64,000 nucleotides of DNA from Minisyncoccota bacterium (GCA_028690055.1 JAQVBZ010000003.1:7779-71778); one strand, 5' to 3'; counted from the stretch's first letter, positions 46 through 63,454 are shown. Program-made: numbers and translations. The notes: generated by a model not told the origin, from the letters alone.

Positions 46-73
46 GGGATTCTTCGGGGTACCTCAGAATGAC
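46..73. repeat. Solo arm of the REP/MITE-like repeat family (GGGATTCTTCGGGGTACCTCAGAATGACA)
   Basis: 28-nt match to the core CTGAGGTACTCCGAAGGATCCC / reverse complement that recurs about 10 times in the window; it lies just downstream of the minus-strand deacylase gene. Confidence 0.6.
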
Positions 74-126: not shown

Positions 127-1704
127 TTACTTAGAAAGTACCGCACCGGCCAGTTCCCCGGTGTGAACCCCTTTGTCCACGACCAGCTTGCCGTTTATCA
201 CTACATATTCTACGCCTGTCGAATATTGATAAGGATTCTCAAAGCTGGAGCAGTCGTTGATTTTCTGCTCGTCAAAAATCACTATATCTGCAAAATAGTC
301 TTTCTTGAGGAGCCCTCTTTTTGTGATGCCCATCTTCTGAGCAGGAAGAGATGTCATCTTGTAAATCGCCTCCTCCAAGCCGAGAAGTCCTTTCTGCCGA
401 ACGTACTTACCCAGTACGCGAGCGAAAGTGCCGAAACATCGCGGATGTACCAACTCTCCACTTCGAACATATTCGATATTGTACGCGGCATCAGCGGAAG
501 AGATAATACAATACTTGTTCTGCATTTCCTTTTCAATATTCTTCTCTCCCAGGACGCCCTTATCAAACACTATGACATGTCCGCCCGCACTAATCAGGAG
601 TTCAATGATTGCCTCCTCCGGCTCAATGGACTGGCTCTCTGCGATATCGCCGATTTTCCTGCCCACCACTTCGCGCATGTTCGGACAGATAGAAACGATG
701 ATGTTATTGTAATCGCGGTTCATCCCTTTCATTTCTTTCACAATTTTCCCGCGCAGCTCCTGATCCTTCAGGCGTTCAATCATTCTCTTGCGTCCTCCTT
801 CCGGAACCCAATCCGGCAACAAGATATAAAGGACGGAACCGGTGGTATCGTAAGGATAGATATCAAAATTGATGTTAACGCCCTCTTCGTTGGCAAGGTC
901 GATCATCTGAACCGCTCTTTCCATATCAGGCCAATATTTTTTGCCGATCGACTTGAAATGGGATATCTCGATAGAGACTCCAGTCTCCCTGCCGACCTGG
1001 ATAGTCTCATTGACACTGGGCAAAAGCTCCTCCGCCTCACCGCGAATATGGCTAGCGTAACAAGCATCGGCAGATTTCAAAATACCTGTCAGATATTTTA
1101 TTTCTCCGGTACTGGCCATCTTGGAATGAGAAAAAACCAATCCGGTCGACATACCGAAAGCGCCCTCGTTCAAAGCATCGCCCAGCATCTTGCCGATCGA
1201 CTTGACTTCGCTTTCCTTGATTTTCCGTACGTCGTCGCCCATCAACCCTCGACGGAGAGTCTCATGTCCGACCAGAGTTCCGAAATTGAGACCGATATCC
1301 CTTTTCTTCAGTTCCTGCAAAAATTCTTTCGTCCGTGTCCAGTTTACGCTGATATTATCCATATTCACCCACTTGCGCAGCGAACAGACAGAATCAGATC
1401 CCAGCACCGGCGCCAACGACGACCCACAGTTCCCGCCTATGATCGTGGTAACTCCCTGCATTACCTTACTGTCCAATCTCGGAATCGTAAAAAGTGTCCA
1501 AAAGCTATCCGAGTGATCCAAGATGTCAACAAACCCAGGACAAACTATCTTGCCTTTGACATCAATGATTTGTTTCGTCTGGAATTTTCCCGGCAGCTTT
1601 TCCACGGCGGCTATTTTTCCGCCCATGATAGCGATGTCCATATCCGTTCTCTTTGCGCCGGACCCATCGATTACCGTGCCGTTTTTTATGACTAGATCAA
1701 ACAT
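127..1704 (-). CDS. N-acyl-D-amino-acid deacylase (D-aminoacylase)-like amidohydrolase
   Basis: 525-aa ORF. The N-terminus (DLVIKNGTVIDGSG...DIAI.GGKI) and the CPGFVD..H motif, with overall length and layout, fit metal-dependent amidohydrolases of the D-aminoacylase type. Confidence 0.65.
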   Translation of the reverse strand: MFDLVIKNGTVIDGSGAKRTDMDIAIMGGKIAAVEKLPGKFQTKQIIDVKGKIVCPGFVDILDHSDSFWTLFTIPRLDSKVMQGVTTIIGGNCGSSLAPVLGSDSVCSLRKWVNMDNISVNWTRTKEFLQELKKRDIGLNFGTLVGHETLRRGLMGDDVRKIKESEVKSIGKMLGDALNEGAFGMSTGLVFSHSKMASTGEIKYLTGILKSADACYASHIRGEAEELLPSVNETIQVGRETGVSIEISHFKSIGKKYWPDMERAVQMIDLANEEGVNINFDIYPYDTTGSVLYILLPDWVPEGGRKRMIERLKDQELRGKIVKEMKGMNRDYNNIIVSICPNMREVVGRKIGDIAESQSIEPEEAIIELLISAGGHVIVFDKGVLGEKNIEKEMQNKYCIISSADAAYNIEYVRSGELVHPRCFGTFARVLGKYVRQKGLLGLEEAIYKMTSLPAQKMGITKRGLLKKDYFADIVIFDEQKINDCSSFENPYQYSTGVEYVVINGKLVVDKGVHTGELAGAVLSK

Positions 1705-4472: not shown

Positions 4473-4651
4473 TATGACTTTTTATTTTTATTTTACACAA
4501 GGAATGCTCACGTATGGAGTAGTAGACTTTAGTCTGCGCTGCTGTCCGATGCGGATAAAACGTGTTAATGCGACATTTTTTTCGGCTTGGGACAGTCGCG
4601 CGGGATAAATCCCGCTAATATCCCGTCCGTTCACCACAAATAAACCGATCA

Positions 4652-5504: not shown

Positions 5505-5850
5505 ATAATTATCGGTTATTTCCTCTTTCCTCTTTTTTTCTCTTCTCTTCTTCCTTCTCCTTGCGCATCATTTTAATACCTTCCAGAGTCAGCCAGATTG
5601 GCATGAAGAGGTTCAGATATTTTTCATACAAACCTTCGTATTCCTTTTTTGCCATATTTTTATCAAATTAATTTTTCATAACCGACTATCGGTTATTTCC
5701 TCTTTCCTCTTTTTTTCTCTTCTCTTCCTCCTTCTCCTTGCGCATCATTTTAATACCTTCCAGAGTCAGCCAGATTGGCATGAAGAGCTCTAAATATCTT
5801 TCATATAAACCCTCAGTTTCCTTTTTCTTGCCTACTCTTGTCCACATATT
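5505..5850. repeat. Tandem direct duplication (2 x ~165-180 bp, about 90% identical), each copy carrying a 48-53-codon ORF on the minus strand
   Basis: Units 5509-5655 and 5686-5847 share the polypyrimidine tract ...ggttatttcctctttcctctttttttctc... and ...gcgcatcattttaataccttccagagtcagccagattggcatgaaga.... On the minus strand they translate to MAKKEYEGLYEKYLNLFMPIWLTLEGIKMMRKEKEEEKRKKEERGNNR and MWTRVGKKKETEGLYERYLELFMPIWLTLEGIKMMRKEKEEEKRKKEERGNNR. Confidence 0.8.
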
Positions 5851-5854: not shown

Positions 5855-8701
5855 TCAAATTTGTTTCAATTGTTCCACTTCAACACGAAAAGTGTCGCCG
5901 CGCTTGATATTGCCCTTAAGGAATTCCACGGCGATGAGATTCTCCAGCTTCTCCTGCATGGTTCGTTGTAAGAATCTCGCCCCATACTCCGCATTATACC
6001 CGACTTCTACCAAATAAGAAACCGCTTCGTCGCTGAGCTCGACTTTGATGCCCTGCGCCTCGTCCAGTCTCTTAGCGAGACCCTTGATCTGCAGTTGAGC
6101 GATCAGGAGTAAATTCCGCGGCGTAAGGGAGTGAAAAACGATCTTATCCGTGAAGCGATTCAGGAATTCTGGAGTAAAGTACTGCAAGAGGTAAGGATCC
6201 AGCATCTCTAAGATTCTATCATTATCACTATTCTCGTCAACAAATATCTTGCTCACCTCTTTGCTTCCGGCGTTGGAAGTGGCGATAATTATGGCGTTGG
6301 TAAAATCCACCGTCCGCCCCAGATTATCCGTCAGCCGCCCGTCGTCAAAAACTTGCAAAAAAAGGTTCAGAACATTCTTGTTCGCCTTCTCCAATTCGTC
6401 CAAGAGCAATAGAGAGAACGGATTGCGTTTGACCGCCTCGGTCAGGATACCGCCACCGGCATTATCATCACTGCCTTCCGAAGAAGAATAGCCAATCAGT
6501 TTTTCCACACTGTCCACCGTCTGATATTCGCTCATATCCAGCCGGATCATCGCTTCTTCATTGCCATAATAAATCTCCGCCAGCGCTTTGGCAAGCTCGG
6601 TCTTACCCACCCCGGTCGGCCCTATGAATAAAAATGCTCCGATAGGGCGGTTTTGCAATTTCATCCCCACCCGCACCCGACGAATAGCTGAAGACACGGA
6701 CTTGATTGCCTGATCCTGCCCGATAACCCGCCGATGCAGACTCTCTTCCAGATTCAAAAGTTTTTCCGCCTCGTTAGAATTTATACTCTCCAGAGGAATG
6801 CCGGTTTTTTCCGTAATGATTTTCATGATATCCTCGTCGCGCAGTGTCTGCCCCTCGCCCCGGCGACGTACCTCTACGGCTGTTTCCGAGAGCAAATCGA
6901 TCGCCTTGCCGGGCAGCAAACGGTCGGGGAGATATCGATTGGAAAGTTCCACTGTTTTCTTGATAGCGCCGTAAGTCATTGTCACGCCCTCTCGTGCCTC
7001 GATATATCCCGCTTGGATAGCCAGGACCTGGAGTGCGTCTTTCTCGTTAAGTTCCTCCACTTTCACTGTATCAAAACCGTTAGCAAAATCGCCGCGCGGT
7101 TCAATGAAGCGATGATAATTACGATAATCGGTCGAGCCGATAATTTGAAAAAGTCCTTGTGAAAGGATAGGAGACAAAATTTTGGAAGCGTCGAATCCTT
7201 CCCCGTTTCCCGCCGCCGCCAGATTATGAATATCGGGAATATATAAAATAATGTTCCCGCCGCGTCCCATATCTTCCAAAACTTTTTGAATCCTCAGCTC
7301 CAGGTCTCCGCCAGCGCTAGCCCCCGCAATCAATGCGGTAATATCCAACACCACCAGTCTCTTGTCGCGCAGCGTCGGCAGGACCTCGTCGTGGATCATC
7401 CGGTTGGCCAATGCTTTGACAATCGTGGTGCGTCCGCTACCCTCCTCGCCGACAAGTAACGCATTGTTCTGACTGGTTCTTTCCAAAATCCGCATCAGTT
7501 CGTCCAGCTCTCTACTGCGATTAACGACATTTCCTGTCAGCCCCGAACGGGCGCGATCAGTCATATCGTAACTGAATTGATCTAGCTCGGGAGTAGTGCG
7601 CGCCGTCCAAGCTTTATTCATTACCGTATGTGTAATCTTACGCGGACGCCCATTTCCTATTCGCACCTTGCCCAAACTCCTCGTCCAAAGCAAGGCGCTG
7701 CGGATGTCCTGTAAATCAAATTTGGCATCGTGAAAATATTTTTCCATATCTTGGTCACAGAAAAGCGCGAGAAAAAGTGCTTCCGGCTCGATCATATCGA
7801 AACCCGCGATTATACTTTCCTGCAGCGCGAAAATCGCGAGCTGCTTCATTTCCGGGCTCATCACGGTCCCTTTCTTTCTGTTGTAATGATCGTTTGTAGG
7901 CAGATGCTTAATGGCATCGTCCAAAAACGCACCGAAAGCCTTAGTATCTATTTCCATTCTCATCGTCAAACTCCTGATATCATCATCTCCCAGCAGAACT
8001 CTCGCCAGATGAAAAACACCGGGGGCCTGCGCATGATCGTGCGCCAGATCCAATGCTTTCTTCAACATGCCGAGCGTCGAAACGGAGGCGAAGGCGGACA
8101 CGTCTATGGCTTTTTCCAGCTTGGCAGGATTTTCCTCATAGAAAGGCTTGAATTCTGTATCTGTAAGACTGATTTCCTTGCGGGAAAGATCGGCGGTTCG
8201 GGCAAAATAATAACAGCACATCGCGCCCAAAAGGCCCGACCAAAAAAGCAGAGTTCCCACTCCCCGCTCCGTAAAAATCACACCGAGAGCCTCTACAATA
8301 TTCAAAGCGAAATAATAGGCGGCAATAACAAGGGCGCCGAAGATATCATCCTTCGCAAGACGAACCGAGTCTACATCGCTTTTGAAACTCACAAAAAAAT
8401 CCCCATTTTGAGAAACAATGAAGAAAACTCCGTAAATCAGGGCTGCGAACGCCAAGAAATAAGAGAGGAATCGCGCCGAAGATTGCAGCGCGTGACCGAA
8501 CAATCGGAAAAAAGAAAGATTTCCCGACAAGTCAGAACCCCAGAAATAATCCCCCGCGCCGCGGACGCGCAACAAAACTCCGCCGCCATCGCAGGTAGGA
8601 CATTTCGACCCGTTATCCCGAAATCCGTCAGCCTGACATTCGGGGCACCGGATCACTTCCGACACGGCTTGATTCTCTTGTTTTCCTTGTTCCTCTGGCA
8701 T
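5855..8701 (-). CDS. Hsp100/Clp-family AAA+ ATPase with N-terminal zinc ribbon and transmembrane anchor (ClpA/ClpC-like; degenerate D1, canonical D2)
   Basis: 948 aa. An N-terminal C4 zinc ribbon (CPEC...CPTC) is followed by 3 hydrophobic helices, two Clp_N repeats (HLARVLLGDD / EALFLALFCDQD), a degenerate D1 (P-loop GEEGSGRTT, no Walker B Glu), the RYLPDRLLPGKAIDLL linker, a canonical D2 (GPTGVGKT, LLLDELEKA) and a GARFLQR C-terminal small domain. Confidence 0.85.
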   Translation of the reverse strand: MPEEQGKQENQAVSEVIRCPECQADGFRDNGSKCPTCDGGGVLLRVRGAGDYFWGSDLSGNLSFFRLFGHALQSSARFLSYFLAFAALIYGVFFIVSQNGDFFVSFKSDVDSVRLAKDDIFGALVIAAYYFALNIVEALGVIFTERGVGTLLFWSGLLGAMCCYYFARTADLSRKEISLTDTEFKPFYEENPAKLEKAIDVSAFASVSTLGMLKKALDLAHDHAQAPGVFHLARVLLGDDDIRSLTMRMEIDTKAFGAFLDDAIKHLPTNDHYNRKKGTVMSPEMKQLAIFALQESIIAGFDMIEPEALFLALFCDQDMEKYFHDAKFDLQDIRSALLWTRSLGKVRIGNGRPRKITHTVMNKAWTARTTPELDQFSYDMTDRARSGLTGNVVNRSRELDELMRILERTSQNNALLVGEEGSGRTTIVKALANRMIHDEVLPTLRDKRLVVLDITALIAGASAGGDLELRIQKVLEDMGRGGNIILYIPDIHNLAAAGNGEGFDASKILSPILSQGLFQIIGSTDYRNYHRFIEPRGDFANGFDTVKVEELNEKDALQVLAIQAGYIEAREGVTMTYGAIKKTVELSNRYLPDRLLPGKAIDLLSETAVEVRRRGEGQTLRDEDIMKIITEKTGIPLESINSNEAEKLLNLEESLHRRVIGQDQAIKSVSSAIRRVRVGMKLQNRPIGAFLFIGPTGVGKTELAKALAEIYYGNEEAMIRLDMSEYQTVDSVEKLIGYSSSEGSDDNAGGGILTEAVKRNPFSLLLLDELEKANKNVLNLFLQVFDDGRLTDNLGRTVDFTNAIIIATSNAGSKEVSKIFVDENSDNDRILEMLDPYLLQYFTPEFLNRFTDKIVFHSLTPRNLLLIAQLQIKGLAKRLDEAQGIKVELSDEAVSYLVEVGYNAEYGARFLQRTMQEKLENLIAVEFLKGNIKRGDTFRVEVEQLKQI

Positions 8702-10946: not shown

Positions 10947-11027
10947 GTATCATCCTGAATGTAGCGGAGCGGAACGAAGGATCCCGTTACTATAATGGGA
11001 TTTTCGGAGTACCTCAGAATGACACGG
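10947..11027. repeat. Two-armed REP/MITE-like element (variant left arm)
   Basis: The left arm ATCATCCTGAATGTAGCGGAGCGGAACGAAGGATCCC is inverted relative to GGGATTTTCGGAGTACCTCAGAATGAC. The element lies directly after the elp3 stop. Confidence 0.6.
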
Positions 11028-14587: not shown

Positions 14588-14626
14588 TAAATATCGCCCC
14601 CTCTCCCATCGGGAGAGGGTTAGGGT
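14588..14626. repeat. Hairpin plus G-tract repeat (CCCCCTCTCCCATCGGGAGAGGGTTAGGGTGGGGGAGG)
   Basis: A 9-bp perfect stem CCCTCTCCC/GGGAGAGGG is followed by four G-tracts. Related copies lie at 38625-38665 (opposite strand), 56150-56188 and 63367-63425. Confidence 0.6.
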
Positions 14627-14689
14627 GGGGGAGGAATAATGCTCTTGTATCCCAATCCTATTTTTCACAGTTCCGTCCCGCGTAATAAC

Positions 14690-14718
14690 GGGATCCTTCG
14701 GAGTACCTCAGAATGACA
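14690..14718. repeat. Solo arm of the REP/MITE-like family, inside the ftsE-ftsX intergenic region
   Basis: GGGATCCTTCGGAGTACCTCAGAATGACAG lies between the ftsE stop (14728) and the ftsX start (14525). Confidence 0.6.
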
Positions 14719-25899: not shown

Positions 25900-26322
25900 G
25901 TGATAAGAGTGGAAGAAACGATGAAAGAGATATACTGTTATGAATCCATACAGAATGAAAAGGGAGAATTTAACAGTTCTTTCACGGGTCAGCTTCCTGA
26001 TTTCATAGAAGAAAAATACCCAATAAGAAAGTTTGAGGAACAAGTAGAAAAGTTTACTGTGGTAATACACCATTCTGAGGGGCAAACCGCAGTCGATTTG
26101 CTGAGATGCCGCGTAGACAAATTGACTATCTTCGGCAATCAGATGATAATGGCTTACCGGAATGAAGGTCTACAGTGTTATAAGATCTTTCAGAGATACC
26201 TCCTGCACGGACGACAAGCTGATATAACTATCGGACATGTCCACGAGTTTATCCTGATGGATAACCTGCTCTTCATACGGGAGATAACCAAATCGACCGC
26301 TGATGCCAAATATGTAGATTGA
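25900..26322 (+). CDS. Hypothetical protein inserted between pheS and pheT
   Basis: 140 aa on the opposite strand to pheST. The likely real start is ATG at 25921, preceded by GGAAG. No recognisable domain. Confidence 0.4.
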   Translation: MIRVEETMKEIYCYESIQNEKGEFNSSFTGQLPDFIEEKYPIRKFEEQVEKFTVVIHHSEGQTAVDLLRCRVDKLTIFGNQMIMAYRNEGLQCYKIFQRYLLHGRQADITIGHVHEFILMDNLLFIREITKSTADAKYVD

Positions 26323-26419
26323 ACAAAAACAGAATGGTGAGAAAAAACCACAAAAAACATTTTTTCAAACAGAAGGTTGATCTTTTAAATTTTAACTTTC
26401 TTTTTTTGTTTTCAAAAAA

Positions 26420-26684
<265 letters not shown>

Positions 26685-26721
26685 CATCGATCATTCCCGT
26701 ATAAATCAAATTTTCAAAAAA

Positions 26722-27747
26722 CTAAAACTGCTCCAAAAATCTCAAATCGTTTCCATAAAATAATCTCAAATCGTTCACTCCGGTCTTGATCATAGCGATA
26801 CGCTCCAACCCCACTCCGAAAGCAAAGCCTTCGTATTTTCCTTCCTCAAATCCCACTGAGGTAAACACCTTCTGATTGACCATCCCCGCGCCCAAGATTT
26901 CAATCCATCCCGTCTGCTTGCAGATACGGCATCCTTTGCCGCCGCAATATGGACAAGCAACATCAATTTCAAATCCCGGCTCCACGAATGGGAAGTAGCT
27001 GGGACGGAGTCTTATCTCTAATTCTTTCCCGAAAAGTCCTTTCATAAATTCCGCCATCACTGACTTGAAATTTGCCACCGTGAGTTTGCCGCTCTCATCC
27101 ACCATCAGACCTTCAACCTGATGGAAATTCGATTCGTGTGTCGCATCCGCGTTTTCAAAACGGAAAGTTCTGCCTGGCACAATAATACGAAACGGCGGTT
27201 TGTTTTCTTCCATAAAACGGACCTGCATCGGCGAAGTGTGAGTGCGCAAAAGATTGCCATCCGTAAACCAAAAGGTGTCCCACATATCCCGCGCTGGATG
27301 ATTTGATGGAATATTAAGCGCGTCGAAATTATGGAACTCGTCTTCAACTTCCCTACCATCGGCAACCAAAAAACCCATCGAGCGAAAAATATCCTCGACT
27401 TCATAGCGAGTCTTAGTGAGAGGATGGATGTGTCCCACCGCAGGTTTTTCACCCGGATAAGTGACATCCACTTTTTCTTTCGTGTCGAGCTCGGCGAATT
27501 CTTTCTCTTTCATTTCCGTTTCCTTCGTCGCAAGAGCCGATTCGATTTCATTTTTTGCAATGTTGGAAATTTGTCCGATCTCTTTTTTCTCTTCCACGGA
27601 CATATCCTTGAGCCCCTTCAGGACTTCCGTAAGCTCGCTCTTGCGCCCCAGATATTTCACCCGCACTTCTTCCAACGCCTCAGCGCTTTCCGCTGCGGTA
27701 ATTTCCGTCAAGGCGGTATTTTTTATATTTTCGATTTTATCTTTCAT
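26722..27747 (-). CDS. pheS: Phenylalanine--tRNA ligase alpha subunit
   Basis: 341 aa with class II aaRS motifs ([35 protein letters not shown]). Confidence 0.95.
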   Translation of the reverse strand: MKDKIENIKNTALTEITAAESAEALEEVRVKYLGRKSELTEVLKGLKDMSVEEKKEIGQISNIAKNEIESALATKETEMKEKEFAELDTKEKVDVTYPGEKPAVGHIHPLTKTRYEVEDIFRSMGFLVADGREVEDEFHNFDALNIPSNHPARDMWDTFWFTDGNLLRTHTSPMQVRFMEENKPPFRIIVPGRTFRFENADATHESNFHQVEGLMVDESGKLTVANFKSVMAEFMKGLFGKELEIRLRPSYFPFVEPGFEIDVACPYCGGKGCRICKQTGWIEILGAGMVNQKVFTSVGFEEGKYEGFAFGVGLERIAMIKTGVNDLRLFYGNDLRFLEQF

Positions 27748-27780
27748 ATGATTAGATTATTTTATTTACTATAGTACCTG

Positions 27781-27870
27781 TCATCCTGAGGTACTCCGAA
27801 GGATTCCGTTATATTCCGCATAGCGTCGGGATTCTTCACTTCGCATCCGCTCCGTTCAGAATGACGCCAT
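27781..27870. repeat. Two-armed REP/MITE-like element between pheS and the NIF3 gene
   Basis: GTCATCCTGAGGTACTCCGAAGGATTCCG ... CGGGATTCTTCACTTCGCATCCGCTCCGTTCAGAATGACG. Confidence 0.6.
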
Positions 27871-27873
27871 GGA

Positions 27874-28662
27874 CTATACCTCATTCGGCACATCCACAAA
27901 TTCCACTTCTATCTTAAATTTCTTCGCAACCATATTTCCCAGATTCCTGATTCCCTCTTTTTCCGTATTGTAATGTCCAGCGCTTATATAATTCATCCCT
28001 ACCTCTTCCACTTTGCGTACCACTTCTTCCCAAATATCTCCCGTCAAAAACACATCCGCTCCGGCCAGATACGCTTCTTCAAAATGCGGAGAGGCGCTGC
28101 CGGATATGATTGCCACTTTTTTTACCTTCTTTTTCCCTTCTGCCATTGCAAGACTATGAGTGCATAATTGCACTTCAACTTTTTTCTTGAATTTCTCAAA
28201 ATCCATCTCTTTTTCAAGTTCGCCGATAAATCCCAGACTAAACGGCTTATTCTTTACAAGGCCGAGCATCTTTGCCAAACTTATGTTATTCCCGATTGTC
28301 GGATGCGCATCCAACGGCAAGTGGTAACCCGCCAGATTGATATCGTTTTCCAAAAGCACTTTGACTCGGTTCTTTTGGACACCTTTCAAGCGAAAAGGAG
28401 CCGGAATGTCACTCTTAAAAAATCCGTGATGCACCATGATCATATCCGCCTGCTTTTCCATCGCCTTTTTGATAAGCGCCTTGCTGAGCGATACGCCAGT
28501 CACAATTTTCGAAATATCTTCCCTACCTTCGATTTGGAGACCGTTAAAACAGCCATCCTCGAAATCTTTTACTTTGAGATACTCGTCACAGAATTGGATT
28601 ATCTTGTCTCTTTTTACTGGCATAAGTTTAATATTTATTTCTTGCAATCTCCTTTGCTTCAT
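27874..28662 (-). CDS. NIF3-family dinuclear-metal protein (YqfO/YbgI-like)
   Basis: 262 aa with the NIF3 N-terminal His cluster (MIMVHHGFF) and a C-terminal lobe (FLTGD...HYNTE). Confidence 0.8.
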   Translation of the reverse strand: MKQRRLQEINIKLMPVKRDKIIQFCDEYLKVKDFEDGCFNGLQIEGREDISKIVTGVSLSKALIKKAMEKQADMIMVHHGFFKSDIPAPFRLKGVQKNRVKVLLENDINLAGYHLPLDAHPTIGNNISLAKMLGLVKNKPFSLGFIGELEKEMDFEKFKKKVEVQLCTHSLAMAEGKKKVKKVAIISGSASPHFEEAYLAGADVFLTGDIWEEVVRKVEEVGMNYISAGHYNTEKEGIRNLGNMVAKKFKIEVEFVDVPNEV

Positions 28663-28835
28663 TCCAAAATCCTTAACAGTAACGAATGCACAAAAACTCC
28701 ATCCCCTCCGATGGATTCTAAAGGCAACTTGATTCTATCAAAGTTTCTAGCATTTTTCAAGTAATTAAGGCTATATTTCAGATTATACGAAACAGATACA
28801 TATCAAGAAATACATCTTCCCCTTGTCGGTGATAC

Positions 28836-29279
28836 CTATCTTTTAACCAGAAAATAAAACTCCATCACCACCACGAACAATACGAAAAAGAATGCGCTAT
28901 AGATATCGAGCCTTCTTTCCCCCTGCAAAATCAGCAATCCCACAAAAGTCACCGCGAGAAACATCCCCTGTCGAAAAGCGATTTCTACCTGCTGAAACTC
29001 AATCTTGTCCTCGAAAATCCGCCGCCGCAGATAGAATCCTAAAAGCGAGAAAAGACTGGTCAAAGCGAAAAATAGTGTGAAGTAAAAAAGCAGAAAACCT
29101 CCGAGATGCGCGCTATCAGGACTAATGTTCTGCAACACCAAAAACCAAGCCGCAAAAGAAACGACTGTACTAAAAATCATTCCCCATAGGTAAGTTTTAA
29201 TAGTCATAGGTTCAAGATTATCCGCCTTATAATGATTACATTCTAACCCATTTACGCCCTTTACGCAAAACTTAACCAC
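28836..29279 (-). CDS. Hypothetical membrane protein
   Basis: 147 aa with 4 predicted TM helices. Confidence 0.35.
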   Translation of the reverse strand: MVKFCVKGVNGLECNHYKADNLEPMTIKTYLWGMIFSTVVSFAAWFLVLQNISPDSAHLGGFLLFYFTLFFALTSLFSLLGFYLRRRIFEDKIEFQQVEIAFRQGMFLAVTFVGLLILQGERRLDIYSAFFFVLFVVVMEFYFLVKR

Positions 29280-29336
29280 CCGCGCTTAAGACCTTTTGTT
29301 TCAGCCGAATTAAAATATAATAATCTTTTTTTATTT

Positions 29337-29692
29337 GTCATTCTGGAATTTCGTTACTGCGAAATATCCGGAATCCCGAGACTATGCAAGACAAATATTA
29401 TACTTCGGTCTTATAACTAAGCCTTACTGGCTTAGCAGTGGGATCTCTGATAACAGCTTCGCAAATTTCGGGATAACAGACTGTAAAAAAGTAAAAATGC
29501 AATAAATTTAATAAGCCAAAGATAAATCGGGGGGGAAGCACAGGTGTGTCGAAAGCTTTTATCTATGTCATTCTAAAAGCAGCCCAAGCTTAATATACCC
29601 TCATCTGAATGGTATATTACAGCAATAATTTATCATTTAAGACTGATAAAGTTCAAGGGATTCCTCCGCTTCGCTGCGGAATGACAAAACGA
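29337..29692. repeat. Composite palindromic repeat region (second hairpin-repeat family)
   Basis: Left hairpin GTCATTCTGGAATTTCGTTACTGCGAAATATCCGGAATCCC; right unit AAAGTTCAAGGGATTCCTCCGCTTCGCTGCGGAATGACAAAACG. Both units recur at 63040-63095 and 63230-63290. Confidence 0.55.
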
Positions 29693-29820
29693 TGGATTTA
29701 CAGCAATAAATAAAGTTTTGACGAAATGATGTTAAAATCTCGAAATTCACATTACCACCCCTTGCCTTCTTTCTTTTTTTCATATATACTCTACCTATCC
29801 TCATAAAAGGATATTTTTAT

Positions 29821-29892
29821 CGCGGGGTAGAGCAGCGGCAGCTCGCGAGGCCCATAACCTCGAGGACGGGGGTTCGAATCCCTCCCCCGCAA
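29821..29892 (+). tRNA. Initiator tRNA-fMet (anticodon CAT)
   Basis: The 5' CGCGGGG... and 3' ...CCCCGCA ends give an unpaired C1/A72, the bacterial initiator hallmark. The anticodon loop is CCCATAA on a G-C-rich stem, and the T-arm is GGGGG-TTCGAAT-CCCTC. The sequence closely parallels E. coli tRNA-fMet. Confidence 0.85.
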
Positions 29893-29985
29893 CAACCAAA
29901 CGAAAGCACGCCTGATAAGGTGTGTTTTTGTTTGGTTGTTTAAAAATTGATATTCGAAGTTTATGCCCCGGAATCTTGCGCTGCG

Positions 29986-30024
29986 GGAGCAGGTTTAAAC
30001 CTGCTCCTGCTACTCCATTTTTTA
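29986..30024 (+). terminator. Palindromic terminator-like hairpin plus T-run
   Basis: The perfect 22-nt palindrome GGAGCAGGTTTAAACCTGCTCC is followed by ...CCATTTTTTAATTT. A related GCAGGTTTTAACCTGC hairpin follows the HD gene at 34683-34700. Confidence 0.4.
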
Positions 30025-30094
30025 ATTTGACAATCTTTATACTATGTCTATAATAGTATATAAAGAATAACATATTATTTTTAATAGCAAACAT

Positions 30095-30445
30095 ATGGAT
30101 TCATCACAAGAGATGACACGCGGCGCCATCGAACTTGTCGTGCTACAGACACTCTCCAACTACGGAGACAACTACGGCTATGAGCTTATCAAGATCATCG
30201 CGCAAAAAAGTGAGAGTATTTTTGAATTCAAAGAAGGAACACTTTATCCTTTGCTTTATCGTCTGGAGGAAAAGAAACTGGTAAAGAGCTATCGCCAAGT
30301 CGCCGAGAGCGGCAAAGAGAGAAGATTCTATCACATCACTGCCGCCGGAGAGAAAAAGTTGGCAAGCAAAAAATCAGAATTTGAGACTTTCCTCGCGGGG
30401 ATGGACGCAATCCTCAAGCCTAATCATTTAAGCTTGGAGAGATGA
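30095..30445 (+). CDS. PadR-family transcriptional regulator
   Basis: 116 aa with a winged-HTH containing the PadR signature (GAIELVVLQTL...GYELIKII...EGTLYPLLYRLEEKKLV). Confidence 0.85.
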   Translation: MDSSQEMTRGAIELVVLQTLSNYGDNYGYELIKIIAQKSESIFEFKEGTLYPLLYRLEEKKLVKSYRQVAESGKERRFYHITAAGEKKLASKKSEFETFLAGMDAILKPNHLSLER

Positions 30446-32073
30446 AGAACCGAACAATCCATAAACAATATGTGGACGACATAATCCGGGAGCTTCCCAT
30501 ATCCGAATACACCTCGCGATTTTGCGAGGAGCTTTTGGAGCACTTGGAAGACTGCGAGGAAGATTTCAATGATCAACCAGGGGCTGATAGTCCGAAACAA
30601 ACTGTGCGAAAAATCGGAGACAAAGATTTGATTATCCGAACCTACAAAGAATTTCACCGCGAACGTCACTCCAAACTCCGGCGGCTGGAACTCTCTTTTT
30701 ATGTCATATTTTCCTGGCTGATATTTTTTATTACCTCGACGATACCTAACTATTTAGAATCGACTTATCTCTACTCCGATCACCCCGCCCCCTTGTTTTC
30801 TGGCATCATGATTTTTTGTGCCGCCATCTTCTGTACTCTGGCTATTAATTATACCTTCTATAATTTTCTATCCGTCCGTCTATCCCTCCACTCGGAAAGT
30901 GACGATCGCAAGCAAAAATTGCTGGTCATATTCTTTTTTCTGCCAGCGATAAGCGCGCTGGTGAATCTTATGACTGCCTTCTCCGCCCCAGGGCAAGCTC
31001 AGCTCTGGGGAATATTGATTGCGCCCCTGCCCTTCCTCAGCGCCTTCCTGCCGGCGCTGATTAATTTTAAGATTATTTGCAAAAACAAAAAAAACGTCGG
31101 ACTCGACGCCACTCTACCATATCTGACTCTAACCGTTTTTTTGGTTTTTCTGCTTTTGGTCGCCGCCACAGACAAGATACTGTTTTTAGAAACACTGTCA
31201 CCCCTGCAAGCGATAGTCAATATTTTTTACATATTCCATTTCATATTATTTATCCTTATCGATGTCATAGTCGACTTGCCCTTTTTCGCACTCTTTCCTA
31301 TGGATAATTCCAATTCCGCCTCTTATGTGGTACCCGTACAAATGGTGAGCGTCAACATCGCCATCGCCGCCGCATACGTTATGTCGCTGGGAGCAATAGG
31401 TGTTTTAGCACTTCGCTCCGCGCGCAAGCAAAAAAATCTTGCAGAAAAAAGATGGAATAGAGCTGTCGGATTGATACTCTGCGCTTATGCCATATTTATG
31501 TTTCTGCCAATAAAATCCATAGACACACCGGCAATCAACTGGAATGTACCGGCGAAAGAAATTTCCAAACAAATTGAAAAGAAACAGTTCGGAATCTTTT
31601 ACAGTTTCATCAAATTCAAAAACGATGATGAGGGGTATGTTTACAATTATGACACTTGCAGCACCGAGAACGGCTTTATCGCCAAGCAAAGTTCAGGACA
31701 GATTTTCTACTTCGACGTGACGGGAGCTTCATCGATCAGAGAGGTAAAGACGGTGCGGATGGAGAAGCAAAAGGGGAAAGAATATTGTGCACAGATCCCG
31801 ACAAAAGGATATGACGCCGAAAGCCTTTTCTTTTTCCAAGAAGGATGGAAGTGTCTGGATAAAGAGGATACCCCTCTTCCCATGGGCAGGCTCGAAGGTT
31901 GCGCAAAAATCACTTACGCGGACCGCGAGATATTTAAGGAAACCTATGAACATTCTACGAGCGAGATCCAGTCCATCGAGATGAGTGCCGACGGAAACTG
32001 GGCGCTGATCAAGATGGCTGACGTTTACAGCGTAGATTTCTTGTACCTGGCAGATTTGCGAGAACCGAAATAA
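30442..32073 (+). CDS. PadR-associated membrane sensor (N-terminal HAAS/DUF1700-like domain, polytopic, C-terminal extracytoplasmic domain)
   Basis: 543 aa. The start overlaps the PadR stop (ATGA). The N-terminal ~80 aa (YVDDIIRELP...EELLEHLED...IGDKDLIIRTYKEF) fit the HAAS/DUF1700 pattern usually paired with PadR. About 7 TM helices follow, then a ~180-aa C-terminal soluble domain. Confidence 0.55.
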   Translation: MKNRTIHKQYVDDIIRELPISEYTSRFCEELLEHLEDCEEDFNDQPGADSPKQTVRKIGDKDLIIRTYKEFHRERHSKLRRLELSFYVIFSWLIFFITSTIPNYLESTYLYSDHPAPLFSGIMIFCAAIFCTLAINYTFYNFLSVRLSLHSESDDRKQKLLVIFFFLPAISALVNLMTAFSAPGQAQLWGILIAPLPFLSAFLPALINFKIICKNKKNVGLDATLPYLTLTVFLVFLLLVAATDKILFLETLSPLQAIVNIFYIFHFILFILIDVIVDLPFFALFPMDNSNSASYVVPVQMVSVNIAIAAAYVMSLGAIGVLALRSARKQKNLAEKRWNRAVGLILCAYAIFMFLPIKSIDTPAINWNVPAKEISKQIEKKQFGIFYSFIKFKNDDEGYVYNYDTCSTENGFIAKQSSGQIFYFDVTGASSIREVKTVRMEKQKGKEYCAQIPTKGYDAESLFFFQEGWKCLDKEDTPLPMGRLEGCAKITYADREIFKETYEHSTSEIQSIEMSADGNWALIKMADVYSVDFLYLADLREPK

Positions 32074-32245
32074 ACGCCTAAAATTAAAATAAGATTAGAA
32101 CATTAATGTAAAGATAAATTTTATATCTTCGTTCCTATCACCATGTCATAAAAATAAAAACATTACCGGATTCTCCCCTCTTCCGATACTACAAATTATT
32201 ATTTTGTAAATCGGCCCAAGAAATTGACCATATAAATGTAGCGCG

Positions 32246-33910
32246 ATGAAAGAAATAGCAAATACCGATAAATATGTGGACGACATCATCAAAGAGCTGC
32301 CGCCTTCACCACGCACGCGGAGATTCCGCGAGGAGCTCTTGGAGCATATAGCCGATGCCGAAGAGGATCTGCAAAATCAAGAAAATAATTTTAACCAAAT
32401 CAAAACAAAAGTCATGCAAAAAATCGGAGACAAAGACACACTAACCAAAAGTTACGTCGATTTCTATAGAAGCAGCCTATCCTCTCTGTGGCCGATAGAG
32501 CTGCTCATCTACATCGCCCTATCTTTGTGCGTCTTTCTCGTCACGGATCTTATCCTGAGTCCGTATGAACTGATTACAGACTCCTCGCTCTGGATCTTAA
32601 AAATAGCAGTGATCATTTTCTCCATCTTGGTTGCATATGTTTTCAACCGCATCGTGTATACTTTTGCTGCTAAACGCCTATCCCCGCACTTGTCCAGCAA
32701 GAAAGCCCACATTTTGGTAGCCTGGTCACTCGTAATCATGCCCATCCTCTCCTTTATTTACGGCTGGGCATACATTCTTTATTGGGAAGTGCAAAAGTCC
32801 GGCCTGGAATTTTTCATATCCGAATACTTCGCTATCACGGTGTTAAAAATTGCGATTATGCATCTGGCTGCCGCCATCGCTTTCGGCATCATCCCACGCC
32901 GAAAGAAAAAAGTTTCTACCCTCAGCAATAAAGTCCCGTATCTTCTCCTGTTCATCTTTCTGACAATAATGTTTTTTTCCGTCATGCTAGCCCAGCAAAA
33001 ATCCGACTCGCTCTCCGCGTCCGGGCAATTCATAAATGTACTGACATCTTATCTGGCGATGCCGATTAATATTTTATATTCTTTCCTGGACGGCCTGGAT
33101 GTCTATGCTCCGAGCGGTGGGCAGATTTTTACCCTCAACGTTTTCGCCGCCCTGGATTCGTTAGCATTCTTCAGAATGTTTTTGGCACTCTTGATCATTA
33201 CAGCCGTGGGAGGTGTTTGGCTTATCATTTCCGCCGATAAATCCAAGTCAGAAAACGGCAAAAATTGGAAGCGCGCCACAGGCATCGCTCTTATCGCCTA
33301 CTCCGCCTTTGTATTGCTCCCCATTAACAAAGTGCAGCAAGAGGATCCGATTTTGAACGTTCCAGCTTTCAACGTAACGCAGAAAATCGAACAAGATCAA
33401 CGGGGGTTACTCTATCCGGCACTAAAATATGTAGACCAAAGTATTAGAAATAATGCCTTCTACGCGGTCTATAGAGATGGCAATCTCTTTACTATCGGAC
33501 AATCATTCGGTGCAGCGGGCAACTATTTTCTGATCGATGTAAACAACGTTCCGGAAGGACAAGATCCTGTGATTTCTACCAACGCGAAAGAAAAAGGGAT
33601 GGAATCCTACACGCTGGAATTCAATCCGTTCGAGGGAATGATTCCACAGGGATTCGAATGCCCCGATTGCATAACAACCAGGGAAAACGACGAAGCAGAA
33701 GACATATCGTACTCCTCTTATGATGATTCAGGAACAAGAACGTACTATTCTGCAGATTATACAAATTTGACCTACAACGGGCACAGGCTCTTAGCCGAGG
33801 GAAAAAATGTAAAACCTCACGAGATCAAGGTAAGTGCCAATCAAGAGTGGGCGCTCATCGAGTTTGATAGTGAGCAGTTATATCTGATAGATTTGAGAAG
33901 ATTGAAGTAG
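32246..33910 (+). CDS. Tandem paralogue of the PadR-associated HAAS membrane sensor
   Basis: 554 aa. The N-terminal cytoplasmic module (YVDDIIKELPPS..EELLEHIADAEED..IGDKDTLTKSYVDF) and the C-terminal tail (...EWALIEFDSEQLYLIDLRRLK vs ...NWALIKMADVYSVDFLYLADLREPK) are conserved with the upstream gene. The central TM and extracellular parts have diverged. Confidence 0.55.
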   Translation: MKEIANTDKYVDDIIKELPPSPRTRRFREELLEHIADAEEDLQNQENNFNQIKTKVMQKIGDKDTLTKSYVDFYRSSLSSLWPIELLIYIALSLCVFLVTDLILSPYELITDSSLWILKIAVIIFSILVAYVFNRIVYTFAAKRLSPHLSSKKAHILVAWSLVIMPILSFIYGWAYILYWEVQKSGLEFFISEYFAITVLKIAIMHLAAAIAFGIIPRRKKKVSTLSNKVPYLLLFIFLTIMFFSVMLAQQKSDSLSASGQFINVLTSYLAMPINILYSFLDGLDVYAPSGGQIFTLNVFAALDSLAFFRMFLALLIITAVGGVWLIISADKSKSENGKNWKRATGIALIAYSAFVLLPINKVQQEDPILNVPAFNVTQKIEQDQRGLLYPALKYVDQSIRNNAFYAVYRDGNLFTIGQSFGAAGNYFLIDVNNVPEGQDPVISTNAKEKGMESYTLEFNPFEGMIPQGFECPDCITTRENDEAEDISYSSYDDSGTRTYYSADYTNLTYNGHRLLAEGKNVKPHEIKVSANQEWALIEFDSEQLYLIDLRRLK

Positions 33911-34023
33911 CTTGCCACCGCTTTTACATACAGAAACAAAAAGTCCGGATCGCCTCTGGACTTTTTTGTTTTTTTATATTACTATTGAAAGGTATTTGAC
34001 AGGCTTTATTTACAAATCGCAAC

Positions 34024-34098
34024 ATACCCGCGCCAGGGTAGCTCAGTTTGGTTAGAGCATAGGACTCATAAACCTAAGGTCGTGGGTTCGACTCCCAC
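34024..34098 (+). tRNA. tRNA with CAT anticodon (elongator Met or lysidine-modified Ile2)
   Basis: Manual fold: acceptor GCCAGGG/TCCTGGC, D-arm GCTC-AGTTTGGTTA-GAGC, anticodon stem TAGGA/ACCTA with loop CTCATAA, T-arm GTGGG-TTCGACT-CCCAC. Confidence 0.75.
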
Positions 34099-34124
34099 TC
34101 CTGGCACTCACTAAGTTTACAATC

Positions 34125-34673
34125 ATGAACCGAGACAGAGTAGCCGATTTCCTCTTCGAAATCGGCACTTTGCGCAATATGCGCAGAATGCAAAGCCAAA
34201 TCTTACCAGAATCAAATGACAGCATCGCTTCTCACTCTTTCGAAGTGGCAATCATCGGTATGATTCTTGCCCGAAGCGAAAACGCTGATGAGAATAAAGT
34301 AATCAAGATGTGCCTCTTCCACGATATCGCAGAAGCAAGGATCGGAGACGCAAATTTCATCCACAAGTTTTATGTTCAAGCTGACGAAGACAAGGCGTTG
34401 CGCGATCAAATCGCCGACACGCCGATTGCTGAGGAGATTTTGGCAATCATCAACGAATTTGAAGCGAGAGAGAGTAAAGAGGCTATTATCGCCAAAGATG
34501 CGGATCTGCTGGATCAGATTTTAGTCCAGTCTGCCACAATCAAAAACGCCGAGGACAAAAAGCTCTGGAATGAAAACAGCGCCAAAGACCTCCAAACTGA
34601 AATTGCCAAAGAATTGGCCAAGGCCCTGTCAGACACAAATCCCCTGTCCTGGGTTTATAAAATGGCAGAATAG
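34125..34673 (+). CDS. HD-domain 5'-deoxynucleotidase (YfbR-like)
   Basis: 182 aa with the H...HD...D metal motif (ASHSFEVA..., CLFHDIAEARIGD). Confidence 0.7.
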   Translation: MNRDRVADFLFEIGTLRNMRRMQSQILPESNDSIASHSFEVAIIGMILARSENADENKVIKMCLFHDIAEARIGDANFIHKFYVQADEDKALRDQIADTPIAEEILAIINEFEARESKEAIIAKDADLLDQILVQSATIKNAEDKKLWNENSAKDLQTEIAKELAKALSDTNPLSWVYKMAE

Positions 34674-34846
34674 CCCCTGGAGTAGCAGGTTTTAACCTGC
34701 ACTGTTATCCCAAGCCGACAACACACCCTTGTTCCTATGGAACAGCCGGCGCGGGATGAATCCCACTACTCCACCAAAAAAACTACATTGCGCCTCTTGT
34801 TGACATTTCTCACAGAATTGCTATTATTTAAAAGTCGAATTCATAT

Positions 34847-34920
34847 GGGGGCGTAGCTCAGTTGGTTAGAGCGTCTGCTTGTCACGCAGAAGGTCATGGG
34901 TTCGAGCCCCACCGTCCCCG
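34847..34920 (+). tRNA. tRNA-Asp (anticodon GTC)
   Basis: Acceptor GGGGGCG/CGTCCCC, D-arm GCTC-AGTTGGTTA-GAGC, anticodon stem TCTGC/GCAGA with loop TTGTCAC, T-arm ATGGG-TTCGAGC-CCCAC, discriminator G. Confidence 0.85.
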
Positions 34921-34926
34921 CATAGA

Positions 34927-38120: not shown

Positions 38121-38139
38121 ACAATTCACTCTCAAAACG

Positions 38140-38810: not shown

Positions 38811-38842
38811 ACGGGATCCTTCGGAGTACCTCAGGATGACGC
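38811..38842. repeat. Solo arm of the REP/MITE-like family
   Basis: ACGGGATCCTTCGGAGTACCTCAGGATGACGC lies just after the MFS gene stop. A hairpin/G-tract family copy is adjacent at 38625-38665. Confidence 0.6.
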
Positions 38843-40159: not shown

Positions 40160-40190
40160 ATCATTCTGAGGTACTCCGAAGAATCCTGCA
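40160..40190. repeat. Solo arm of the REP/MITE-like family, between rdgB and the MFS gene
   Basis: TCATTCTGAGGTACTCCGAAGAATCCTGC. Confidence 0.6.
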
Positions 40191-41369: not shown

Positions 41370-41565
41370 ACTTTGAATTACGAAATGCTTCATTTTATAA
41401 ATCAATCCTCTTTGTATCATTCTACAGTGCAGTAAAATAAACTCTTGATTGTCTGTCATTCTGAGGTACTCCGAAGAATCCCGTGAGAAAGCGCGAGGAA
41501 TCTGACAATGGGATCCTTCGGAGTACCTCAGAGCCTGCCCTCGACCTGATCGGGGGATGACAAAC
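41370..41565. repeat. Left copy of a ~195-bp inverted repeat flanking the 41685-43220 cassette; it embeds a two-armed REP/MITE-like element (41455-41535)
   Basis: It aligns with the reverse complement of 43433-43630. The shared blocks are CTTTGAATTACGAAATGCTTCATTTTA, GTCATTCTGAGGTACTCCGA(A/G)GAAT(C/T)CCGTGAGAAA and GGGATCCTTCGGAGTA(C/T)CTCAGAGCCTGCCCT(C/T)GA(C/T)CTGATCGGGGGATGACAA. Confidence 0.7.
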
Positions 41566-43220: not shown

Positions 43221-43432
43221 GAATACTTTTAATGCGCCCTTTGTTAGTATTTTATCTATCGCTATATTTTTTGTTTTCGTTTCTCATTCCTCCTAGATTT
43301 TTGCTATTCAGCTTTCTTTTTTCTTAAGGTTTCTTGGTTAGAAACATACCACAAATTTCATCTGAAGTCAAGCATGTGGTCTTAAATTCTATTCTGAAGT
43401 GCAGTTCCCTTTTAAACAAAATATCGCTTGTC

Positions 43433-43630
43433 ATCCCCCGATCAGATCAAGGGCAGGCTCTGAGATACTCCGAAGGATCCCGTTATCAGATTCCACGCGT
43501 TTTCTCACGGAATTCCTCGGAGTACCTCAGAATGACGATAATCAAAAGGTCGGTTTACTTAACTTTGGGGTGGCACAAAGAGAATTGAGTTGTAAAATGA
43601 AGCATTTCGTAATTCAAAGGAAGGCGGGAA
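43433..43630. repeat. Right copy (inverted) of the ~195-bp repeat; it embeds a two-armed REP/MITE-like element (43455-43535)
   Basis: Reverse complement of the 41370-41565 copy at about 80% identity. Both termini are near-identical and the middle has diverged. Confidence 0.7.
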
Positions 43631-55934: not shown

Positions 55935-56030
55935 TTTTGTTATTCTGAAGAATCCCGTCATATACCACGGGATAAACAAGATAACTATTATTTCGTCATT
56001 CCGAGGTACCCCGAAAAATCCCTTCATTTT
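55935..56030. repeat. Two-armed degenerate REP/MITE-like element
   Basis: TGTTATTCTGAAGAATCCCGTC ... GTCATTCCGAGGTACCCCGAAAAATCCC. A hairpin/G-tract family copy is adjacent at 56150-56188. Confidence 0.5.
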
Positions 56031-56224
56031 TTGCGTGGTAACGAGATTCTCCCTTCTGCTAAGAGTGACTTATAATGAAACGGCTCTCTCACAATAATTA
56101 CTATCGCAATAAGATGAGCGTAAACAATTTTATCGTCATCAGTACGTCCCCTCTCCTACCGGGAGAGGGTCGGGGTGTGGGGGATGATAATATTTAAACC
56201 TTTTTGAAAAGTACGATTAACACC

Positions 56225-61030: not shown

Positions 61031-61108
61031 TGTCACGCTGAGGGTAGTGTAGGATTCCGTTACTATGCGGGATATTACGGGATCCTTCGGAGTACCTCAG
61101 GATAACAC
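61031..61108. repeat. Two-armed REP/MITE-like element between the ABC permease and ATPase genes
   Basis: TGTCACGCTGAGGGTAGTGTAGGATTCCG ... GGGATCCTTCGGAGTACCTCAGGATAACACG, inside the permease-ATPase operon junction. Confidence 0.6.
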
Positions 61109-62778: not shown

Positions 62779-63454
62779 TGAAGGTTTTAATGCCGCGGGA
62801 TATTTTCTATATATACTTGGCTCACCTGCTTTTCCTATGGCTTATTTCATGCTAATAAATCTGGAATTATGCCAGATTAACTTATTTTGAATTACAAAAT
62901 ACCTTACTTGTTATTCCTGTACAAGTTAGACAGTTCGCTGACAAAATACTACATAATTTTCATCTATATGATATTTTTCGTGTGTCATGCTGGGCTTGAC
63001 CCGGTATCTTCTTTATATTTCGCTTTTACTTTGCCATAACGCTTAATCGTTATACTCCGTAGATTCCGGATATTTCGCAGTAACGAAATTCCGGAATGAC
63101 AAATATCGTGGATTTGGTGTTTAAGAAAAATTCTTCGAAAGATTCTTTTAAAAGTGTCAGCGAATCATCCGGCTTGCACAATTCCGTAAGGACCCCTTGA
63201 GAAGTAGCCTTAGACAAATCTCCTTATCATAAAAGTTCAGCAATAAACCGAGGGATTCCTCCGCTTTGCTGAGGAATGACAAAATGTCGGTTTTATTACG
63301 GAGAATACAGTCTGGATGATTTGAAAAAGTATTCTTAAGATTAGAATTAAATAAGAACTTGCTTCCATTCCCTCTCCCACCGGGATTATCGCCGTGCCAT
63401 AGTAAAGTGACGGCAGGAGGGCGTTAGGGGGATAATTATTTCACTATCAATCAT

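Follow-up and report, generated by a model that had tools for sequence, protein, structure and literature searches.

The Ssn system, which pairs a small nuclease with a short repeat, was not described until 2025, largely from work on Neisseria and other Pseudomonadati (PMC11893778). SsnA is a 94-aa GIY-YIG protein (cd10448; Chenal et al. 2025, PMC11893778) that binds the Neisseria repeat NTS, CGTCATTCCCGCGMAVGCGGGAATCYRG, and cuts a few nucleotides upstream of it. The enzyme is active on single-stranded DNA alone and on one strand alone, and it does not bind RNA. Cutting depends most on the three bases before the palindrome of NTS, and binding depends most on the C that follows it. SsnA homologues occur in many phyla, where they are flanked by Ssn-related motifs (SRMs), while single-strand-specific cleavage has been demonstrated for the Neisseria and Wolbachia enzymes only. 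In Neisseria, the Ssn/NTS system lowers transformation by NTS-flanked DNA. The mobility of SRMs is offered there as a hypothesis only, and the term Patescibacteria is absent from the main text (PMC11893778).

The REPs tagged with CGTC or TGTC, or alternatively CCTC, carry the tag unpaired at one end and have stems of 8-9 bp that start with AT, loops of 4-5 nt, and a 3-nt, CCA-like tail (Di Nocera et al. 2013, PMC3733652). Most form inverted dimers, whose conserved spacers are 20-100 bp long, and hetero-dimers are common. Their superfamily includes RPE-4 and RPE-6 of Rickettsia and the CGTC-4 family of Wolbachia. No dedicated enzyme was found in that study, and Patescibacteria and Planctomycetota are not among the phyla in which it reports CGTC-type repeats (PMC3733652). 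These REPs and the NTS/SRM repeats are two described classes that overlap.

Here, we describe a family of short palindromic repeats in a 64-kb stretch of DNA, which was analysed as a whole and is referred to below as the window. The window repeats are likely to be Ssn-related motifs, that is, repeats of the CGTC/TGTC-tagged REP or Neisseria NTS/dRS3 kind, which a nuclease of the Ssn family would cleave. Their arms form a divergent sequence class in a lineage for which no prior description was found in the literature. No later paper on Ssn/SRM arms was found, and a search with the repeat sequence as a string returned only primers.

Arms and their placement in the window

The 22-nt core CTGAGGTACTCCGAAGGATCCC has 10 matches in the window at up to 3 mismatches (positions 46, 14690, 27786, 38813, 40166, 41461, 41510, 43460, 43509, and 61079) and none in any of 100 dinucleotide shuffles. 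The preliminary description had counted at least 10 occurrences of the core in 64 kb, with solo arms at 46-73, 14690-14718, 38811-38842, and 40160-40190, two-armed copies at 10947-11027, 27781-27870, 41455-41535, 43455-43535, 55935-56030, and 61031-61108, and a variant second arm in some copies, all of which were found as described. The family is larger than first noted, with extra arm types at 29337-29477, 29658-29685, 62984-63009, 63062-63100, and 63254-63280. With these further types included, the window holds about 23 related arms at 13 intergenic sites, several of them degenerate, which corresponds to roughly one arm per 3 kb (Table 1).

The repeat unit is a single arm and not a long palindrome. 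The arm follows the consensus (T/C)GTC-ATYCT-GA-[insert]-GA-AGRAT-C-C, is 27-39 nt long, and folds on itself. Its type is set by the insert within GTCATYCTGA-[insert]-GAAGRATCC, which is GGTACTCC in type A and about 18 nt long in type B (for example, ACGGAGCGGATGCGAAGT); types C and E, present in the window, and type F, present in relatives only, carry other inserts. Arms in the window start with GTC, or with ATC or GTT in decayed copies, and inverted pairs of about 86 nt each are frequent.

Table 1. Arms and arm pairs of the repeat family in the window
Feature	Coordinates	Strand	Context and remarks
Solo type-A arm GTCATTCTGAGGTACCCCGAAGAATCC	47..73	-	Follows the amidohydrolase gene 127-1704(-), 53 nt past its stop
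Inverted dimer	10947..11023	+	Between convergent radical-SAM and methyltransferase genes; B-like arm 10949-10984(+) with tag ATC, spacer CCCGTTACTATAATGGG, type-A arm 10997-11023(-)
Solo type-A arm 14691-14717 with spacer remnant	14668..14717	-	10 nt past the ftsE stop, upstream of ftsX
86-nt hetero-dimer	27780..27865	+	Type-A arm 27780-27806(+), spacer, type-B arm 27829-27865(-); begins 8 nt past the NIF3 stop and occupies most of the 126-nt NIF3-pheS spacer
E-type (longer arm) dimer	29337..29477	+	GTCATTCTGGAATTTCGTTACTGCGAAATATCCGGAATC at 29337-29375(+), fold -9.2 kcal/mol, z -3.9; degenerate partner 29440-29477(-)
C-type arm GTCATTCCGCAGCGAAGCGGAGGAATCC	29658..29685	-	With 62984-63009, the arm type here closest to Neisseria NTS
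Solo type-A arm	38814..38840	-	17 nt past the stop of an MFS transporter gene
Solo type-A arm, tag ATC, with spacer remnant	40160..40186	+	Between rdgB (Ham1) and an MFS gene
A/A dimer	41455..41563	+	Right arm with 24-nt insert 41538-41561; within the 193-nt inverted repeat 41371-41563
Inverted copy of the 41455-41563 dimer, 92% complementary	43428..43536	-	Within the inverted repeat 43428-43619
Two decayed dimers	55941..56070	+	Minimal arm pair 55941-55985; second dimer with type-A arm 55995-56021(+) and degenerate partner arm 56044-56070(-)
Dimer	61032..61106	+	Degenerate left arm 61032-61057(+), type-A arm 61080-61106(-); 18 nt past an ABC permease stop, upstream of an ABC ATPase gene
Possible short arm GTCATGCTGGGCTTGACCCGGTATCT	62984..63009	+	Read from sequence; stem of 8 positions with a loop of 5 nt, as in classical CGTC REPs
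E-type arm	63062..63100	-	98% complementary to the arm at 29332-29375
C-type arm GTCATTCCTCAGCAAAGCGGAGGAATC	63254..63280	-	Intergenic

Every arm lies outside real genes, in a window with a coding fraction of about 0.82. The intergenic placement that had been claimed is confirmed, the sole overlaps being with spurious ORFs that run through the repeats; those over 41455-41563 and 43428-43536 are read-through artefacts with no Pfam match and are absent from the gene list of an identical contig. The neighbours named earlier (ftsE and ftsX, ABC permease and ATPase, pheS and NIF3, rdgB and MFS) are correct, and the frequent placement within strings of co-directional genes was likewise recovered. 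The ABC genes of the window are GldG-like, a trait suggestive of a Bacteroidota host, which the PheS homologues (see below) do not support. The arm end ...GAATGACA gives a -35-like ATGACA 16-17 nt from a -10-like hexamer, as a match to the consensus alone, and such arm ends at 27784-27756(-) and 29341-29314(-) lie just upstream of pheS and of the ORF 28836-29279, respectively.

Other repeats share the window with the arms. A second family, CCCTCTCCC-N3/4-GGGAGAGGG followed by GGGGTGNGGGG, is found at 14595-14631(+), 38627-38662(-), and 56145-56184(+), with a variant at 63368-63425. It combines a perfect 9-bp hairpin with four G-tracts of G-quadruplex-like look, and each copy is 60-170 nt from an SRM arm, a pairing that is also present at the metagenome loci L064 and L076. 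A palindromic family, GGAGTAGCAGACTTTAGTCTGCGC, occurs at 4513-4539, 34676-34702, and 52089-52115. The 193-nt inverted repeats at 41371-41563 and 43428-43619 (80-92% complementary) contain one SRM dimer each and bracket a secreted-looking 511-aa ORF, 41685-43220(-), with no Pfam match, an arrangement that resembles the "NTS-gene-NTS" units around surface-protein genes of Neisseria. No inversion of this ORF was seen, its orientation being the same in five assemblies. The 24-nt insert of these dimers, AGCCTGCCCTCGACCTGATCGGGG (41538-41561 and 43430-43453), is a small hairpin placed within the type-A arm between CTCAG and GATGAC, and it also occurs at an unrelated metagenome locus (L125). The 3' end of pheS has a 116-nt copy, 91% identical, in the pheS-pheT spacer (26409-26524 versus 26711-26826), which is a partial gene duplication. 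A 140-nt direct repeat (5510-5649 versus 5687-5826; 92% identical, 177 nt apart) lies 3' of the 948-aa gene 5855-8701(-).

Hairpin anatomy and comparison with described repeats

The hairpin of the arm in single-stranded DNA is real. Among 177 non-redundant arms, the stem variants are ATCCT/AGGAT (117 arms), ATTCT/AGAAT (34), ATGCT/AGCAT (6), and ACCCT/AGGGT (2), mismatched combinations are rare, and the Y at arm position 6 covaries with the R of GAAGRATC within the same arm. A structure of 5 bp, GA/GA, 2 bp, and a 4-nt loop was tested on an alignment of 44 distinct arms, mostly partner arms that lie outside any search pattern. In this alignment, 96.4% of the cells are paired, and changes on both sides are found in four of the seven pairs (22 cells); none of 500 shuffles reached the covariation score, and slid registers collapsed. 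The bases G5, T6, and C7 of the tag, A8 and T9 at the start of the stem, and C30 after the palindrome are each conserved in at least 90% of the 44 arms. GTC is preceded mostly by T or C, and 164 of the 177 arms have the C that follows the palindrome. The GTC and this C are the very positions on which cutting and binding by SsnA, respectively, depend most (PMC11893778). The type-A palindrome, ATCCT-GA-GG-TACT-CC-GA-AGGAT, followed by C, has nine stem positions and a 4-nt loop, positions 6-7 being G.A/A.G and not Watson-Crick pairs. The tail reads C-C/T-N, and the B and E arms are far longer than an 8-9 bp stem with a 4-5 nt loop.

The DNA fold predicted for type A (ViennaRNA, DNA parameters) is the same hairpin as that obtained from covariation, although it is weak, at -3.2 kcal/mol and z -0.5, compared with -8.9 kcal/mol for NTS. 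A single long hairpin is predicted for the A/A copy at 41451-41567 (-31 kcal/mol, z -6.5). Each A/B copy instead gives two small hairpins, one per arm, and the earlier picture of two-armed, hairpin-forming copies needs correction in that only the A/A copies form a long hairpin. Thermodynamics gives no significant support to the type-A arm or to the A/B dimers; the case for the hairpin rests on covariation. Both the tag and the tail are conserved although they are unpaired, which indicates recognition by a protein and not an RNA stem.

The nearest Neisseria relative of the window repeats is dRS3/NTS and not the Correia element. Like NTS/dRS3, the arms have a GTC tag, a palindrome starting with AT, a C after the palindrome, and a length of about 27-28 nt; they are directional, intergenic, and clustered around some genes, and genes for SsnA homologues are flanked by them. 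Unlike NTS, which has 8-9 Watson-Crick pairs, the window stem consists of 5 bp, tandem G.A, and 2 bp, and the longer arm types carry inserts of at least 18 nt. The window arms are also missed by the published degenerate SRM string, HGTCWYN(0-2)YYVSBRHN(0-5)WNVSBRGN(0-2)RNCYNB, which has 0 matches in the window against 0.16 expected and 5 matches in about 1 Mb of window and loci; as a positive control, it recovered 6 of the 9 NTS copies of the gonococcal locus. With the CGTC REPs, the arms share the unpaired (C/T)GTC tag, the AT at the start of the stem, the prevalence of inverted dimers, the hetero-dimers, the placement downstream of genes, and the lack of RAYT association, and they resemble them in the 4-nt loop (type A) and the CC-N tail, whereas the GA.GA interior and the long B, E, and F arms are found in none of the four published families.

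Distribution, Ssn homologues, and host lineage

The exact 22-mer is present in MAGs labelled Patescibacteria, Paceibacterota, Saccharibacteria, Tepidisphaerales/Phycisphaerales, and Gammaproteobacteria, with the same element architecture in all of them. The exact 27-mer arm is present in MAGs of Patescibacteria, Planctomycetota, and Gammaproteobacteria and in at least 112 metagenome stretches, and its loci span 32-70% GC among the matches listed. An inverted partner ends within 160 nt in 85 of the 128 non-redundant exact A arms among the matches listed, for which the median element is 86 nt. Spacers and partner arms of the dimers are modular, and A/B hetero-dimers are present. The spacer motif CCCG(A/T)nnCTATGCnGGAAT is common to differing arm types and to orthologous sites of relatives (window 27807-27828 and 29376-29395; L147 3333-3525), and its recurrence suggests a spacer core that either persists when arms are lost or is swapped together with them. 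Phage carriage is not indicated, as a scan of viral contigs gave a single one with an arm. In plasmid and phage DNA, the only matches were B-arm-like ones in cyanobacterial plasmids and one chance match inside a phage gene.

The window and the fetched loci were searched by phmmer with GIY-YIG queries of the YhbQ/YazA-like type. No GIY-YIG or ssn gene was found in the 64-kb window, either by phmmer or by a strict motif regex, and small GIY-YIG ORFs were found by phmmer in the fetched loci, with arms identical to the type-A arm beside some of them. At locus L078, complete dimers stand 17 nt upstream and 29 nt downstream of the ORF, and their inner arms are of type A. At L102, the ORF is preceded by a type-A arm and the inner stem module agcctcgaacgtaa(a/g)ggcc and followed by the complementary module gggccctgacgttcgaggct; the same pair of modules surrounds a small loop in the short dimers. 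Other arm types flank the ORFs of L101, L030, L112, and L148, the last being a Paceibacterota ssn gene with arms of type F, not A, immediately beside it. In a relative, the orthologous locus (L152) has an A/A dimer about 830 nt upstream of ssn, and F-type arms are also present within 1 kb upstream. A second ssn copy at L148 5369-5572 is truncated exactly at the start of an SRM arm (...AKYRLN/WFSPRFLNRSTSFRNDN*, with the slash marking the start of the arm), which points to a rearrangement at an arm.

The arm-flanked ORFs are single-domain proteins (PF01541 only), are 34-45% identical to gonococcal SsnA, and are assigned by sequence as SsnA homologues. A comparison of the L102 ORF with N. gonorrhoeae gave one locus, at 48% identity and E 1e-16, where nine NTS copies (CGTCATTCCCGCG...GCGGGAATC) lie within 600 nt around the ORF. 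The catalytic Y, Y, R, H, and E are conserved in the Ssn-like ORFs; the only PDB matches are distant UPF0213 structures with weak similarity, and NCBIfam gives no family name. The specificity of the link between arm and enzyme is supported by a control, an IS200-like Y1 ORF that is flanked by unrelated palindromes. This unit (L038; palindromes CCCTGTGCGACCGGAGTACCGGACAGCACAGGG at 7005-7040 and 7545-7580) has a RAYT-style look; its metagenome contig is apparently of low GC and comes from a similar type of sample.

PheS of the window is 91-94% identical to proteins of Candidatus Paceibacterota, which places the window in a genome of Paceibacterota (Patescibacteria), a lineage of small genomes, in line with the small genome that had been supposed. 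The exact PheS, GyrB, and RdgB of the window occur in NCBI Paceibacterota MAGs (PheS MFA7170372, GyrB MFA7170369). An Ssn homologue, P0122, is identical to MFA7170520, which is named Candidatus Paceibacterota and whose accession is 148-151 numbers away from those of PheS and GyrB. The P0122 gene has arms on both sides and is found on contigs from ERZ27247361 and JGI 3300014206, the two sources of contigs that are 99.8% and 99.7% identical to the window, respectively. Accession numbering and sample co-occurrence give strong, though indirect, evidence of the cognate ssn gene, which a conspecific Paceibacterota MAG very probably contains.

Orthologous sites were compared in relatives with 84-92% PheS identity. 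The NIF3-pheS synteny is kept and the content of the spacer differs in each: a different, E-type dimer in L143, a GCAAT-type dimer with a similar spacer in L147, and in L145 (MAG JAQUYG01, 2722-2852) another palindromic family, a relative of GGAGTAGCAGACTTTAGTCTGCGC. The sites downstream of ftsE and MFS hold eroded versions in relatives. Such differing and eroded occupants indicate that the sites have long been occupied and that their contents are changing. No insertion polymorphism was seen among the same-strain assemblies (L001, L002, L140, and L153-157), and no clean pair of filled and empty sites was found in these or in more distant relatives. The contigs L154-L157 end near SRM dimers, L156 and L157 stopping at the 41455-41563 dimer, about 150-210 nt beyond the 511-aa gene, and the repeats may therefore break short-read assemblies.

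Alternative readings, proposed mechanism, and significance

The preliminary description had likened the repeats to REP and Correia elements and proposed a RAYT partner. A genuine family of palindromic units is indeed present, without the GTAG tag or the RAYT partner of a REP. The REP, BIME, and REPIN-RAYT systems of E. coli and Pseudomonas are similar in combining a small enzyme with a single-stranded hairpin that bears an unpaired tag, in their inverted dimers, and in the flanking of the enzyme gene by its own repeats, but their tag is GTAG and their enzyme an HUH Y1 transposase, whereas here the tag is (T/C)GTC and the enzyme GIY-YIG. That the window repeats are REPs or REPINs mobilised by a RAYT of the IS200/IS605 family is extremely improbable, for all the similar look of short, intergenic hairpins in inverted dimers: no Y1 transposase was found in the window by phmmer, CGTC repeats are never associated with RAYT genes (PMC3733652), and the suggested search for a transposase yielded, in the loci, a single IS200-like ORF that has other palindromes of its own and whose nearest SRM arm is about 600 nt off. 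The enzyme class that accompanies the arms is instead the Ssn GIY-YIG nuclease. Correia elements (CREE/NEMIS) are MITEs of 100-155 bp with 26-nt terminal inverted repeats, a TA duplication, and an IHF site. The window repeats are likewise small, abundant, intergenic, and sometimes co-transcribed, yet the MITE size, the 26-nt TIRs, the TA duplication, and the IHF site are all absent. A classical, Correia-like MITE, which is an internally deleted IS with terminal inverted repeats and a DDE transposase, would fit the two-armed copies of about 86 nt with conserved ends and the different occupants of the same intergenic site in relatives. Such an origin is nevertheless very unlikely, as the flanks of more than 100 copies have no target-site duplication, each end folds as a hairpin of its own whose stem covaries internally, arms often stand alone, the GIY-YIG ORF of about 90 aa is the sole gene found within or between arms, and no transposase Pfam domain is found beside the arms; with the hairpin nature of each arm and the lack of duplications, the Correia/MITE analogy falls away. 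The RAYT-REPIN, the Correia-type MITE, and the intrinsic terminator are rejected because each fails a defining feature.

A role in termination or mRNA processing had also been put forward and received no support, since T-runs are absent after the arms, elements point both with and against transcription, and hairpins of terminator type are present apart from the arms (for example, 41634-41661 and 40855-40886). Of the 30 terminator-like sites in 26000-45000, not one falls on an arm, the type-A and A/B folds are not better than those of shuffles, an Rfam search at gathering and E-value thresholds returned tRNAs and noise only, and SsnA lacks RNA binding (PMC11893778). Five elements do begin 8-18 nt past a stop codon, several stand between co-directional genes, and REPs are mostly downstream of genes and may be transcribed (PMC3733652); even so, we regard a mainly RNA-level role, in which the repeats would terminate transcription, stabilise mRNA 3' ends, or serve as intra-operon processing sites, as quite unlikely, while an RNA-level side effect is possible. 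The repeats could alternatively be decaying relics of an ancient expansion, recognised by no enzyme and now devoid of function. Truncation or degeneration is seen in many copies (40160, 55941-56070, 61032), and the eroded versions in relatives and the uniformity of five assemblies of the strain point the same way. What weakens this reading is that tag, tail, and compensatory pairs stay conserved in hosts that differ greatly in base composition: among the matches listed, the 27-mer is unchanged at 32-70% GC, and partner arms outside the search keep all three features. In addition, an ssn gene that is still intact very probably exists in a conspecific MAG. We consider the relic reading unlikely.

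Each arm is a directional hairpin of single-stranded DNA, with an unpaired 5' (T/C)GTC tag, a palindrome running from AT to AT, and an obligatory C after it, and it occurs alone or in inverted pairs with the tags outward around a 15-35 nt spacer. If the window repeats are Ssn-related motifs, a single-domain GIY-YIG nuclease of the Ssn family, about 90-120 aa long, would bind the folded arm and nick a few nucleotides 5' of the tag, as judged from the enzymes of Neisseria, N. elongata, N. wadsworthii, and Wolbachia. Nicking would take place solely on single-stranded DNA, during replication, repair, or DNA uptake. The copies in the window would be non-autonomous, with the nuclease gene elsewhere in the genome and embedded in such arms, and the cognate enzyme would both cleave the arms and spread them.

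A bolder proposal, which we hold only tentatively and think more doubtful than not, is that arm pairs and ssn together constitute a single-strand DNA transposon that moves between phyla, with the short dimers as internally deleted, non-autonomous copies. It draws on the occurrence of the same 27-mer in Patescibacteria, Planctomycetota, Gammaproteobacteria, and soil bacteria (32-70% GC), and the L102 gene, which sits inside a dimer and is flanked by the stem module of the short dimers, fits the relationship of an autonomous element to its derivatives. If the proposal were true, a GIY-YIG nuclease of about 90 aa would act as a transposase. The exact 27-mer across phyla and the nesting of ssn in arm pairs provide material with which SRM mobility can be tested.

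The arms account for many spurious small ORFs and may account for contig breaks, which is of use in annotation, and they may offer new pairs of enzyme and site for single-strand DNA tools. Patescibacteria are small-genome episymbionts that are reported to take up DNA. If Ssn cuts the arms, the system could influence how incoming DNA recombines in Patescibacteria, as it does in Neisseria, and in this episymbiont lineage it may limit the recombination of incoming single-stranded DNA.
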